A stretch of 35,742 nt of DNA from an uncultured Bacilli bacterium (GTDB taxonomy: Bacteria; Bacillota_I; Bacilli_A; RF39; UBA660). The position numbers and the translations under genes are program-made. The DNA is taken from contig CANQMV010000004.1 of assembly GCA_947625085.1 (NCBI GenBank), positions 1 to 35,742 on the forward strand. Direction: 5' to 3'. Under the pieces are notes generated by a model. It saw only the letters and a list, made by a program, of their open reading frames with translations, had not been told where the DNA came from and made no database searches. Positions within the stretch are counted from its first letter, which is position 1; every line of letters begins with the position of its first letter. Positions 2,625 to 35,742 of this stretch are shown here, one piece after another.

Positions 2625-3581
2625 ATGATGAATAAAAAAGTTGTAGTTTTAGGTGGAGGTACAGGACTTTCCTGTCTATTAAAAGGATTAAAAGATTTTC
2701 CAGTTGATATTACAACGATTGTTTCGGTTTGTGATGATGGAAGGTCAACGGGAAGACTTCGAAGTGAATTTAATCAAGTCGCGGTTGGAGATATTAGACA
2801 GGTTTTAATTGCTTTATCAGAAACGGAGCCCTTATTTTCAGAACTTTTAAATTATCGTTTTCAAACAACAAGTGATTTAAATGGACATGCCGTTGGTAAT
2901 TTACTTTTAACAGCTATGGCAAGTATTACTGGTAATATGAGTAAAGGAATTAAAGCTTTAAGTAAAGTTTTAAATTTAAAAGGCAAGGTTATTCCTTTAA
3001 GTGAAGATAATTCTATTACTTTAATGGGAGTAATGGAAGATGATAGTATTGTTGAAGGAGAACATAATATTACGAAAACGGCTAAAAAAATCAAAAAAGT
3101 TTATTACAAGACGGAGCCTAAAGTTAGTCGAGATGCAATTAAGGCTATTAAAAATGCTGACCTTATTATTCTTAGTATGGGAAGTATTTATACAAGTATT
3201 ATTCCTTTATTAATATGTAAAGAAATAATTAAAGCCATCGATTCATCAGATGCTAATATTATGTATGTTTGTAATATTGTAACTCAACCAGGAGAAACAG
3301 ATGATTTTAAAGCCAGTGACCATATCAACTTATTAAATAATTATTTAGGAGAGAAAAAAATTGAGGTTGGGATTTTTAATCATGAAAAAATGGACCCAGA
3401 ACTTGTAAAAAAATATGAAACTGAAGAACAAAAAGATCCCGTTATTTTAGATAGAGAAAATTTAACTTCAATAGAAATTATTGAAGATGATTTAATAACC
3501 GATGAAAGCGGTATTTTCCGTCATGATACAATAAGACTTGGTTTTAATATTTTTTCTTATTTATTAAATCATAAAAAATAA
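2625..3581 (+). CDS. yvcK: UDP-GlcNAc-binding gluconeogenesis/cell-shape factor YvcK/GlmR (UPF0052)
   Basis: VVVLGGGTGLS, DDGRSTGRLR, GDIR, HAVGNLLL, GSIYTSIIP, TQPGETD and RHD motifs. Confidence 0.92.
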   Translation: MMNKKVVVLGGGTGLSCLLKGLKDFPVDITTIVSVCDDGRSTGRLRSEFNQVAVGDIRQVLIALSETEPLFSELLNYRFQTTSDLNGHAVGNLLLTAMASITGNMSKGIKALSKVLNLKGKVIPLSEDNSITLMGVMEDDSIVEGEHNITKTAKKIKKVYYKTEPKVSRDAIKAIKNADLIILSMGSIYTSIIPLLICKEIIKAIDSSDANIMYVCNIVTQPGETDDFKASDHINLLNNYLGEKKIEVGIFNHEKMDPELVKKYETEEQKDPVILDRENLTSIEIIEDDLITDESGIFRHDTIRLGFNIFSYLLNHKK

Positions 3582-33500: not shown

Positions 33501-33811
33501 TTGAAAATACTGAGACTTTCAAACGTTATACATTTGATTTAGGTTATATTGATAATGGACCTTATCAAGTTACTTTAGCAGTTCCTGATAATAAGGATAA
33601 AACTAGAGCTTGGTTTAAAAAGACTATAGATTTAAGTCAAGTTGAAAAAGGAAATTATGCTATTTATATAAAAACAACTTCTAATTCTAAAACTTATTAT
33701 GGCGAATTAATAGATATTGCTTATACGGATTTTAAAAATATAAATACAACTAAATATGAATTTAAGCGGATTGATGACCAACGTTTGCGATTGGAATTAA
33801 CTGTCAAATAA
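30572..33811 (+). CDS. Secreted GH73 endo-beta-N-acetylglucosaminidase (LytB-like) with Ig-like and tandem C-terminal domains
   Basis: Signal peptide ending VKA. NESA..S.IA..KNNLFGHSAYD..P and YASDPFWGEK motifs. APVITAS...DPLKDVTAYDAEDG Ig-like repeat. Confidence 0.88.
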   Translation: MKKFMVIFLSILFCFTVNVKALTSTEIKSRNVCGNLPIELATANSDKTLTHVDCYSDYKTAKAKMNATNNDNLVILERKSGVTKIIDAKMALVYLGVKSVNTNTTYYTSSSLSSSLTYANHHSTYGATDGVFLELNYSNYAIKVKSNGITGWLKNGDYIIVPLMFTGNYSFYQVTSTGLYHYYSKDIETTYTQTSRVLDKKPAQLTEGRYYSHDGIYFYKYASDMIKDYVNNTYQNAVNYNNPYYNYYMYLPHRARSNYSSDDIDAYLKNTKGFIGTIYGKKLVNKYSNMYQTGTYFKSSESLYGAYAIMMMSLATNESASGQSAIAISKNNLFGHSAYDSSPFASASGYLSPYYSILAHANNYINCGYANPNDYRYYGSHFGSKLSGMNVKYASDPFWGEKATNYYYQFDSQNGFLDYNYYQLGIINKANVSARTEPNQTSSIPYQFKTSEIPVIILEEVKNGDTLWYKIVSDANLNSSRTSILGCSNSNYYNWNSYVYVLASDITKINQTQNGKYNSNNDANVIKPTFTYQEYASASLYTPKSGLINKDTTVYDTATLNVSSNKVAKQGHLATVFMAALDENKKVVAYLITTDYSKNQRGWVKADDLTLNDKDILRVNLTKEGDTLPVYKTPGGSETGKIYTDTYSVIVDKMTYQSDLWLKIFYGLDNTYAWINTNISSSKGSLSYTTSKLNQAPVITASNRTIFVGDTFDPLKDVTAYDAEDGNITSKIKVIENNVNKDVVGAYLVTYQVTDSSNQTTTKSIQITVKNYALGKSLFIYEIIKEIKNDTFQFKGFLAVQGMNNTNLEHELIFENEKTLKTYTFKMEDYNDYPYEVTNTLDNKVYDYSDGWFKGDISLKNIPDGNYRIKVRTYNKTEGYYAEDYFTNIAYQEMPRRVQGERGYSFDIDYSYHGSPIVVAIRSDGLLSYEEPTSLDPMYNFFNELKLDGNKLTIDGTSHSVSVSYSKNDNVSRSLILENTETFKRYTFDLGYIDNGPYQVTLAVPDNKDKTRAWFKKTIDLSQVEKGNYAIYIKTTSNSKTYYGELIDIAYTDFKNINTTKYEFKRIDDQRLRLELTVK

Positions 33812-33814
33812 GAC

Positions 33815-33843
33815 TTGCAAAGAAACTAAAAATATTGTATTCT
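33815..33843 (+). promoter_or_regulatory. sigmaA promoter of module copy 1
   Basis: TTGCAA-17 bp-TATTCT, conserved in copy 2. Confidence 0.7.
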
Positions 33844-33867
33844 TAATATAAGAATAGGAGATTTGCT

Positions 33868-33945
33868 ATGGGAAATATATTAAATAATTATAAAAATTAT
33901 CAAGAAAAAGAAGTTGACAAATTGTCAACCATGGGGGGGGTATAG
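33868..33945 (+). CDS. 25-aa micro-ORF MGNILNNYKNYQEKEVDKLSTMGGV
   Basis: AGGAG RBS at 33856-33860, 7 nt before the ATG. Same length and C-terminus as copy 2. Confidence 0.7.
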   Translation: MGNILNNYKNYQEKEVDKLSTMGGV

Positions 33946-33991
33946 TACTTAATTTAAAGGATAACTATATTTTAAAATTAGACAAAATAAG

Positions 33992-34035
33992 ACACATAAA
34001 ACTAGTAGAATGATACTAGGCTTTTATGTGTTTTT
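33992..34035 (+). terminator. Terminator-like hairpin downstream of the micro-ORF
   Basis: ACACATAAAA-CTAGTA-gaatga-TACTAG-gc-TTTTATGTGT-TTTT. Confidence 0.7.
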
Positions 34036-34048
34036 AAATATATAAATA

Positions 34049-34077
34049 TTGTTAAACGGGGGCAAATGTGTTATTAT
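34049..34077 (+). promoter_or_regulatory. Possible sigmaA promoter for the lectin-fold gene
   Basis: TTGTTA-17 bp-TATTAT with TG extension. Confidence 0.5.
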
Positions 34078-34106
34078 AAAAATATAGATAATAAGTGAGG
34101 TAATTG

Positions 34107-35579
34107 ATGAAAACTAAAAAAGTAATAATATCTTTAATTATTCTAAGTCTTTTAAGTATTATTTATGTAAAGGTAACTAAAGGAATTAATTTTCAAAAAG
34201 AAATTGAAAAGGCAATTATAAGTAAGCAAGAAGTAAATGCTAACGAAGAAAACTATAAAGATGCAACTTTAAAAGGAGCAGACCCAGTTCTTTCAGGTAA
34301 GTTAATCCCTGTAACAATTGATAAAAAGGGAAAAGTAACTTATGCTAATACAAAAAAAGAATGGTATAACTATCAAAAGAAAGAGTGGGCTAATGCAGTA
34401 ATCTTAGTAGATAATCCAAGTTTAAAGTATAAAGTTGGAAGTGAAATAAAAGAAAGTGATATTGAAAGTTATTTTGTTTGGATACCAAGATATAGATATA
34501 AATTATGGAATGCCAATCAAGCAGATGGAGTTTATGATAAAAGTAAAATAACTGATGATGCAAATTCTTTAACTTCATATAGAATGCTGTTTGGAAATAC
34601 GAGACTAATAGAAATAGAATTTGAAGATAATAAAACACCTAAATCAGAAAATAAAGAAAATGGAGAGTGGCTAACCCATCCAGCCTTTACTTTGAATGGA
34701 AAAGAATTAAATGGAATTTGGGTTGGTAAATTTGAAACTGGTTATAATCAAGGGGATTCTGGAAAGCCAATTGAAGATACAACATCATGGTCACCTACTA
34801 AAGCTCGAGTTGATAAAGTAGAAAGTGATAAAATAATAGTAAAACCCAATGTTTATTCATGGCAAAATTCAACAGTTTCAAACTTCTTTAAAAGTGCATA
34901 TGAATATGAACGAGAGTTAGATAGTCATATGATGAAAAACATCGAATGGGGAGCCGTTGCTTATTTATCACATTCCTTATATGGAATAGGAAAAGAAGTA
35001 AATATAAATAATAATAATCAATATAAAACAGGATACTCAGCAGTAGTTGGAACTGATCAAAGTAATTATCCTGGAACAAGTGGAAATACAGAAAAAGAAA
35101 CTTTGCCATATAATACTCCAACCGGGTATCTTGCATCAACAACAGGAAATATTACAGGAGTCTATGATATGAGTGGAGGTTCAAGTGAATATATGGCTGC
35201 TTATAGAAATTTAGGAAATAATTGTGCTGCAGATGCAAATGGCATATTGAGAGGAGATTGCAGTGGTTTTGCATCTGATGAATTAACAAAATATGCTGCT
35301 TATTTGGATAAATATGAAAATTCAACTATGTCATCATATAGTAAAAGAATCTTTGGAGATGCAACCGGAGAGATGGGACCATTTTATCTATATTATGATA
35401 GTAGTTCTCAATATCATAATTCTTGGTATGCTGATTATTCGGATTTTATTGATATTGCAAATCCGTGGTTTACTCGTGGCGGTGCAAATTATAATGGATT
35501 ACTCAGTGGTCAGTTTGGATTCTACCGGAGTAGTGGTACTGTTTCTTCTGGTGCAACTCGTCTTGTTCTTGCAAGTTAA
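34107..35579 (+). CDS. Membrane-anchored surface protein with FGE-sulfatase/C-type-lectin-like domain, candidate DGR target
   Basis: N-terminal anchor. FVWIPRY, HPAF, GIWVGKFE, EWGAVAYLS.S.YG, GNITGVYDMSGGSSEY, PWFTRGG...G.F...G...RLVL at the C-terminus. Confidence 0.8.
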   Translation: MKTKKVIISLIILSLLSIIYVKVTKGINFQKEIEKAIISKQEVNANEENYKDATLKGADPVLSGKLIPVTIDKKGKVTYANTKKEWYNYQKKEWANAVILVDNPSLKYKVGSEIKESDIESYFVWIPRYRYKLWNANQADGVYDKSKITDDANSLTSYRMLFGNTRLIEIEFEDNKTPKSENKENGEWLTHPAFTLNGKELNGIWVGKFETGYNQGDSGKPIEDTTSWSPTKARVDKVESDKIIVKPNVYSWQNSTVSNFFKSAYEYERELDSHMMKNIEWGAVAYLSHSLYGIGKEVNINNNNQYKTGYSAVVGTDQSNYPGTSGNTEKETLPYNTPTGYLASTTGNITGVYDMSGGSSEYMAAYRNLGNNCAADANGILRGDCSGFASDELTKYAAYLDKYENSTMSSYSKRIFGDATGEMGPFYLYYDSSSQYHNSWYADYSDFIDIANPWFTRGGANYNGLLSGQFGFYRSSGTVSSGATRLVLAS

Positions 35580-35606: not shown

Positions 35607-35742
35607 ACTTGAAAAGAAAGTAAAAATATTGTATTATTAAATCAAGATAGGAGTCTTGATAATATGTTAAATGAGTTAGGTAATCATAAAAATTATAACA
35701 AAAAAGAAGTTGACAAATTGTCAACCATGGGGGGGGTATAGT
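35607..35742 (+). repeat. Copy 2 of the promoter/micro-ORF/palindrome/poly-G module (runs to window end)
   Basis: TTGAAA-17 bp-TATTAT (35609-35637), AGGAG, palindrome 35709-35725, G8 at 35729-35736. Confidence 0.95.
35664..35741 (+). CDS. 25-aa micro-ORF MLNELGNHKNYNKKEVDKLSTMGGV
   Basis: AGGAG at 35649-35653. Paralog of 33868-33945. Confidence 0.7.
   Translation: MLNELGNHKNYNKKEVDKLSTMGGV

Follow-up and report, generated by a model that had tools for sequence, protein, structure and literature searches.

The window, by which we mean the whole stretch of 35,742 nt that was analysed, is contig C4 of a 1.19-Mb assembly in 96 contigs, with 25.6% GC and a completeness of 92.6%. At its 3' end we find a short leader open reading frame (ORF) which contains a run of G residues and is followed by a predicted terminator and by a gene for a signal-anchored protein. 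After this gene a second copy of the same arrangement starts, and is clipped by the end of the contig. The features of the region are the following:

33815-33843, plus strand: promoter-like site P1 of the leader, TTGCAA-17-TATTCT, recognised by eye and not flagged by the promoter scan
33856-33860, plus strand: Shine-Dalgarno-like AGGAG, read from the sequence, ending 7 nt 5' of the leader ATG
33868-33945, plus strand: leader ORF as assembled (predicted OFF frame), 25 codons, MGNILNNYKNYQEKEVDKLSTMGGV, with stop TAG at 33943-33945
33913-33929, no strand: hexamer pair forming the perfect palindrome GTTGACA-AAT-TGTCAAC, directly 5' of the G run
33933-33940, plus strand: G8 run, the proposed slippage site, inside the leader ORF
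33950-33952, plus strand: TAA which closes the G7 frame (reading GG-YST), 9 nt 3' of the run
33942-34013, plus strand: G9 frame, ATA GTA ... GAA TGA, open for 23-24 codons past the run
33989-34035, plus strand: predicted intrinsic terminator, with an A-rich 5' extension from 33989, a stem-loop at 33993-34030 and T5 at 34031-34035
34049-34077, plus strand: promoter-like site P2, TTGTTA-17-TATTAT, TG-extended, with GGGGC in the spacer, 3' of the terminator, flagged by the promoter scan
34107-35579, plus strand: downstream gene for a 490-aa signal-anchored protein with no Pfam/NCBIfam family, member of a 5-member paralog family
35609-35742, plus strand: second cassette, clipped by the contig end, with a P1-like site TTGAAA-17-TATTAT at 35609-35637, a leader ORF from 35664, the palindrome at 35709-35725 and G8 at 35729-35736

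With eight G in the run, the leader ORF ends at a TAG placed 2 nt 3' of the run and 47 nt before the 5' arm of the terminator. With seven G the reading frame closes at the TAA, after GGYST. With nine G it reads ...IVLNLKDNYILKLDKIRHIKLVE and ends at the TGA in 34011-34013, which is found in the loop of the terminator, 70 nt 3' of the run. These three readings had been given in a preliminary description of this DNA and all of them hold, as does the second copy that it placed at the end of the contig. The stem-loop of the terminator has a computed folding energy of -13.0 kcal/mol. The whole leader reaches a minimum free energy (MFE) of -31 kcal/mol (z = -3.5 against 200 shuffles), and the terminator is contained in the same MFE structure. 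The G run lies 166 nt 5' of the downstream ATG and in a separate ORF, and the structural gene is intact in all frame states. A fusion of the leader with the next gene, which had been considered too, does not occur: no frame joins them. In the window there is no match to the covariance models of Rfam at gathering score; up to E = 1 the region 33780-34130 has a single match, at chance level (11 bits, E = 0.6).

A second promoter beyond the hairpin had been mentioned as a caveat in the preliminary description, and this caveat stands. Sites similar to P2 are also found after 'type A' copies of the arrangement, and one is kept in another species (locus L051, TTGAAA-17-TATAAT, recognised by eye). 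Since P2 lies between the terminator and the gene, the latter may be expressed whatever the leader does, and a switch in the leader may only modulate its expression. A stretch GGGGC or GGGGCAA is conserved in the spacer of these sites: it is present in the window (34055-34071), at other 'type A' terminators and in L051.

The window copy belongs to a family of 32 cassettes in this genome, each with a length of about 200 nt. Their parts are always arranged alike. A promoter-like site comes first, then a ribosome-binding site (RBS) with an ATG, 11-35 variable codons, the palindrome and the G run; past the run, a brief conserved segment that carries stops in two frames leads into a variable segment of about 40-50 nt, the terminator and the gene. 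Sites equivalent to P1, with -35 and -10 boxes 17 nt apart, are found by eye at the matching position of other copies. The genome has 32 runs of at least eight G or C, against 0.15 expected, and every one of them is inside a cassette. The 17-mer palindrome is also confined, within this genome, to the 32 cassettes. The gap between the palindrome and the run is 2-3 nt, and the run has a length of G8-G10 in all the copies.

The product of the gene which follows each cassette has a membrane anchor or a signal at its N-terminus. These proteins form three paralog superfamilies with 12, 6 and 5 members; their domains are Laminin_G_3, DUF6273, MBG_2 or none. In many of them (for example those of C7:23571-24389 and C2:64849-66570) the N-terminal anchor ends in motifs such as SFAFFTYSKTG, ITYAFYSYSKTG or SYALFQTT, which may resemble SipW-type signal peptides of the TasA/camelysin kind.

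Nine of the 32 cassettes are at most 250 nt away from the end of a contig, as is the case at position 35742 of the window and on contigs C3, C24, C44, C47 and C54. The assembly breaks at a core of about 46 nt which the cassettes share; this may be a plain collapse of repeats, or rearrangements among the cassettes may be concealed there. Mixed combinations of leader class and downstream type are found in the cassettes of C33, C87, C17, C2 (64656), C4 (33913), C44 and C2 (47333): leaders of the form M(F/V)KIEEKLSQKE occur with both types of terminator, and so do leaders of the form MxNILNNYKNYQxKE. This mixture points to gene conversion or recombination in the conserved core. A reading of the cassettes as sites of inversion or recombination was rejected: the copies of each contig have the same orientation (three plus on C2, three minus on C7, two each on C4, C24 and C44), which speaks against invertible sites.

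The frames of the 32 copies follow a common pattern. In 27 of them the leader stops at a TAG 1-2 nt past the run; the other five have one base more and are in the long frame, among them copies on contigs C62 and C37. The third frame, closed 9 nt past the run, is the state of no copy. Enough sequence for an analysis of the terminator is available in 26 copies. In 23 of these the stop of the long frame is found at the terminator: it abuts the 5' arm with no gap (13 copies), or it lies in the arm (1) or in the loop (9). Of the remaining three, two carry the hairpin as well, followed by a T-run that is interrupted. The last one, on C7, lacks a terminator; there the long frame closes within the RBS, 5 nt before the ATG of the gene. 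The distance from the OFF stop to the hairpin is 41-47 nt.

Motif and run were also searched in one genome per species, and at least 91 stretches were found. Almost all of the listed matches come from 'uncultured Bacilli' genomes of rabbit, roe deer and similar gut samples, and at least 76 further copies of the cassette are present in related uncultured gut Bacilli. Among the matches listed there are 79 distinct copies: 3 are chance matches in high-GC genomes, 14 are clipped by contig ends, 9 have no confident terminator and 53 have one, out of 62 which could be analysed. Exactly one frame reaches the terminator in 47 of the 53; three of the others have no such frame and three have two. Among these 47, 32 copies need one more G, 8 are already in frame and 7 need one G less. 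The long-frame stop in the 53 copies is placed beyond the hairpin (24), inside it (19), abutting it (7) or short of it (3). The length of the run in 76 relative copies is G8 in 47, G9 in 23, G10 in 5 and G7 in a single one. All these counts refer to the matches listed.

The sequence that follows the run differs by lineage (TATAGTAC, TCTAAACC, CTTAGAAA, TAATTTAG), and the early stops in two frames persist. Among the matches listed, most relatives have an equivalent of the 33950-33952 stop within 21 nt of the run, in a different sequence.

In the genus of the window the motif with the run is found in 13 of 23 genomes; 300 further genomes of the class, which represent 180 genera, lack it. G runs of at least eight are present in 20 of the 23 genomes. 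In six congeners we have found by eye six loci without the GTTRAC motif (L252, L253, L254, L256, L257 and L260, of genus members G021, G007, G015, G011, G022 and G003), in which other repeated hexamers precede a run of G9-G11: CTTTACA two or three times, or TTGACAT twice, with a period of about 10-11 nt. These loci also have a leader, two short frames and a long frame which ends at a TAA abutting a terminator. The coupling of a G9-type frame to a hairpin in other copies, which the preliminary description had left to be looked for, is thus found in the own genome, in the relatives listed and in these six congener copies.

It had also been noted that an open frame of this length may arise by chance. 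For a single copy this objection is justified: the probability that a frame is open up to the terminator ranges from 0.07 to 0.23, and the value for the window copy is P = 0.107 in dinucleotide shuffles, which is not significant. The significance comes from the family. We have used 38 non-redundant copies (less than 80% identity in the interval), taken from 76 with terminators among the matches listed. The frame is open from the run to the terminator in 35 of the 38, as compared with 16.8 ± 2.9 and a maximum of 28 in 2000 dinucleotide shuffles. When both other frames must in addition be closed within 21 nt, the count is 31 of 38, as compared with 8.7 ± 2.5 and a maximum of 18 in as many shuffles. 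The copies are related by descent, so that these figures are not exact probabilities, though the excess is large.

Several features indicate how the leader is read. In 38 of 39 copies (32 from the own genome and 7 from relatives) an ORF of at least 8 codons which starts with ATG enters the motif in one shared frame; the other two frames have such an ORF in two copies and in none. The only exception is a leader of 3 codons with a good ribosome-binding site. A Shine-Dalgarno-like motif precedes the in-frame ATG in 35 of the 39. The part of the leader 5' of the motif has from 3 to 35 codons, variable in sequence and with no conserved residues; its free variation means that the frame is kept and not the peptide. 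The peptide of the long frame shows no bias of codon position: the variable columns are distributed 6/5/4 and 3/4/3 in the two main types of the own genome. Thus translation itself appears to matter, and not its product. A test within each type for avoidance of stops by substitutions was not significant (P = 0.27 with 16 events, P = 0.22 with 13 events). The even spread of columns and the result of this test both fit a frame which would have to be open, with an irrelevant product. A bacteriocin-like peptide of the double-glycine kind was considered and rejected, given the variable N-terminal part and the long frame without codon bias.

We consider it probable that the cassette is a phase-variable attenuator of transcription, coupled to translation, with the G run as its variable element. 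This is the reading that the preliminary description had put forward, and the comparison across the family supports it well. The promoter would drive a short leader ORF with its own RBS, which traverses the G run; an intrinsic terminator would follow about 50 nt past the run, before the gene for a secreted or surface protein. With G8 the ribosomes would stop at the TAG, 47 nt short of the 5' arm: the hairpin would form and most leader transcripts would end there (OFF or low). With G9 the ribosomes would take the only open frame, cover the 5' arm and stop in the loop of the hairpin, which would then be blocked, and RNA polymerase would continue into the gene (ON or high). With G7 the TAA 9 nt past the run would give OFF again. 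Through slipped-strand mispairing at replication, every one of the 32 cassettes would switch independently of the others, and a population with mixed repertoires of surface proteins would result. What the sequences show is the anatomy, the logic of the frames with its conservation and statistical excess over more than 100 copies, and the occurrence of the three frame states in different copies; the change of run length in populations, the antitermination by ribosomes and the effect on expression are what we infer. The coupling of ribosome and polymerase is reportedly loose in Bacillus subtilis, which counts against the model.

The evidence for a change of the run length is indirect. Public sequencing data which match the window come from 7 DNA runs of 4 studies, with a best share of 0.34, and include no RNA run. 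The Logan contigs of 4 of these 7 runs are short pieces and show no indel at either G run, in a type of data where contigs lose minority variants. The exact palindrome with the run was found in no stretch of a metagenome contig collection. Among paralogs and species all three frame states are present. There are 20 pairs of paralogs with flanks at least 90% identical: the length of the run differs in 9 of them and the total length in 5, and the differences among near-identical paralogs trace to about two events. A difference of one G with the same spacer is found between L193 (TAC-G9) and both L197 and L203 (TAC-G8). Taking together the 79 classified copies of the own genome and of the relatives listed, 59 would reach the long frame with one more G, 13 are in it as assembled and 7 have one G too many. 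Free two-way slippage alone does not predict such uneven predicted states. They possibly derive from a toggle between two lengths, from selection for a mostly OFF state or from a useful low level of slippage on RNA.

We have also looked at mismatch repair. The gene mutL is present (C31:5204-6991, minus strand), with no ORF of the size of MutS beside it, and domain V of MutS was not found in the own assembly, which is 92.6% complete. MutS is present in all of the 22 congeners, so that there is no genus-wide defect of mismatch repair which could raise slippage. Its absence here is probably a gap in the assembly, but it may be a true loss in the species with most cassettes.

The alternative which survives best keeps the same anatomy and places the change of frame on the RNA: either ribosomes slip by -1 on G GGG GGG, or RNA polymerase adds a G. 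Each cassette that is one G short would then give a fixed low level of read-through. We find this unlikely as the main explanation, but it may act alongside slippage on DNA. Runs of at least seven G fit the slippery pattern X XXY YYZ, on which a slip by -1 leads into the long frame; the stop of the zero frame is found immediately past the run. The excess of copies one G short, 59 of the 79 classified as compared with 7 which have one G too many (matches listed), is expected if a poised state is useful. In the own genome the run is preceded, at a distance of 2-3 nt, by a perfect hairpin of 7 bp (-6 kcal/mol), a geometry which resembles that of the Roseiflexus IS630 element. In this element a nascent hairpin by a homopolymer run provokes slippage of the polymerase and removes a base (Penno et al. 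2015, as given in the part available to us of the review PMC5009743). The likeness extends to the inverted repeat immediately 5' of the run and to the need of a change of frame for productive reading. However, slippage in Roseiflexus, as that source describes it, deletes a base, while the majority of our copies have to gain one. Apart from the own species, only 5 of the 76 relatives listed have the hairpin in perfect form; in the other 71 it is lost because of an A.C mismatch. Furthermore, the 13 copies which are in the long frame on DNA and the 7 with one G too many (matches listed) mean that the length of the DNA does change, and a conserved downstream stimulator of frameshifting is absent at the usual spacing. 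Aragorn found 28 tRNA genes in the assembly, none of them for Gly; the codon GGG has a frequency of 4.43 per 1000 codons and is no rarer than GGC.

The hexamer pair, which is specific to the species and has a period of about 10-11 nt, is found before every run and plays no part in the attenuator model. In relatives it has the form GTTAAC-N5-GTCAAC, which gives no stable RNA hairpin (0.0 kcal/mol) in 71 of the 76 listed, as compared with the value of -6 kcal/mol in the own genome; a role of the palindrome as an RNA or pause hairpin was rejected as a general feature on account of this loss. A trans-acting factor in charge of all cassettes together could bind at the pair, a tentative idea which we regard as rather unlikely. 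Such a factor would set the rate of slippage at the adjacent run, or would block or pause RNA polymerase so that ribosomes catch up. If this were true, a tiny genome would have 32 independent random switches which could be tuned centrally.

A further reading, which appears quite improbable, supposes that the hexamer pair and the run serve above all to bind a protein on DNA or RNA, for instance a roadblock repressor or an antiterminator shared by all cassettes, with the frame pattern as a secondary feature. The presence of the 17-mer only at the 32 cassettes would agree with it, and so would the conservation of the motif even at wobble positions, next to a variable centre of 3-5 nt; congeners also carry CTTTACA or TTGACAT at the same place, with the period of about 10-11 nt. 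But it leaves the stops in two frames, the open third frame and the in-frame ATG without explanation. No candidate protein was found, and the motif differs between congeners while the logic of the frames stays.

Finally, it is hardly credible that the run acts as spacer between the boxes of a sigma-70-type promoter, TTGACA ... TATAGT, and sets the promoter strength by its length: near-consensus TTGACA (33914-33919) and TATAGT (33941-33946) do flank the run, and a similar CAAC-G9-TATAGTA is part of a TTGACA-18-TATAGT directly before lipoprotein genes in L144, from a rabbit-gut Bacilli genome, but the spacing amounts to 21 nt if counted from TTGACA and to 13 nt if counted from TTGTCA, where the scan accepts 16-18 nt and gave no flag, the -10-like hexamer varies in the own genome (TCTAGT, GATAGT) and is absent in most relatives among the matches listed (TCTAAACC, CTTAGAAA, TAATTTAG), and neither the in-frame upstream ORF nor the open frame up to the terminator would be explained.

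The phase-variable attenuator has a precedent in the pilus loci pil1 and pil3 of Streptococcus gallolyticus, where GCAGA repeats in a leader ORF shift its stop, as shown experimentally (Danne et al. 2014, PMC3894217). According to the part of that paper available to us, expression is low when the stop is placed 5' of the terminator by at least 28 nt; it is high when the stop abuts the terminator or is found in it or past it, since the ribosome then keeps the hairpin from forming. Both systems have a promoter, a leader ORF with repeats, a stem-loop terminator and surface genes, which in our case are identified from sequence only. The stop of the short frame is placed tens of nt before the hairpin in both, at 39 bp in S. 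gallolyticus and at 41-47 nt here. The alternative frame ends next to the hairpin, in it or past it; switching is stochastic in S. gallolyticus and putative in our case.

The differences are also clear, as far as the available part of that paper describes pil1 and pil3. The repeat is a homopolymeric G8-G10 run here, as compared with 13-22 GCAGA units there. The cassettes described here have a single long frame out of three; in S. gallolyticus the two out-of-frame states are both long. Our cassettes number 32 in a genome of 1.2 Mb and more than 100 in the genus, and there are two loci in S. gallolyticus. The hexamer pair before the run, the promoter-like site past the terminator of some copies and the C7 copy without terminator are also particular to our family. 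Attenuation of the trp type rests as well on the position of the ribosome on a leader ORF, which decides whether the terminator forms (PMC3894217, same part), and the same would be the case here. Unlike such leaders as they are presented in that source, ours have no regulatory codons and no conserved antiterminator hairpin, and the position of the ribosome would be set by the frame and not by charged tRNA.

Our cassettes may also be compared with other systems of homopolymeric runs. Phase variation by tracts in promoter spacers is found, for example, in vlp of Mycoplasma hyorhinis and in porA and opc of Neisseria. Our cassettes share with these systems the tract 5' of surface-protein genes, the many loci and, as a further likeness, a small AT-rich genome; they differ in that the run is placed in a leader ORF and not between correctly spaced -35 and -10 boxes. 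Intragenic poly-G tracts are responsible for the phase variation of contingency genes in Campylobacter, Helicobacter and Neisseria. Here the likeness lies in the length G8-G10, the AT-rich genome, the surface-protein loci and a frameshift which sets ON or OFF; the difference is that the frameshift would alter a regulatory leader and not the protein.

In the literature searched, the work on S. gallolyticus, with one species and two loci, is the only one we found on phase variation of a leader peptide coupled to a terminator; on poly-G switches in these Bacilli no paper was found, within the same scope. What we describe is a known logic with a homopolymeric run, a single ON frame and very many copies, in an uncultured gut lineage with a reduced genome. 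The cassettes would be the main way in which these commensals of rabbit and roe deer vary their surface. Automated annotation, and 'phasome' surveys which target runs in genes or promoters, would miss them. Since the predicted ON or OFF state can be read from the sequence, metagenomic reads could be used to follow the switching of surface proteins in the gut.

Some isolated observations may be added. On the minus strand of the window the scan flagged a terminator-like sequence at 33912-33930, formed by the palindrome followed by TCTTTTTCTT. The A-rich codons 5' of the motif are shared by most copies, and a weak terminator of antisense transcription is conceivable. The rabbit contig L144, from an 'uncultured Bacilli' metagenome-assembled genome, has two sites (632-651 and 3555-3574) with TTGACA, 18 nt including G9, and TATAGT before its two lipoprotein genes. 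They are followed by a hairpin in the 5' untranslated region and an RBS, with neither a leader ORF nor a T-run, and have CAAC-G9-TATAGTA in common with the window cassette. These sites look like a classical poly-G switch in a promoter spacer. In L155 (genus member G005), at about position 401 of the minus strand, we have found by eye CAACCATG-G8-CATAGTAC in frame near the 5' end of a normal gene, which is a candidate for an intragenic phase-variable gene.
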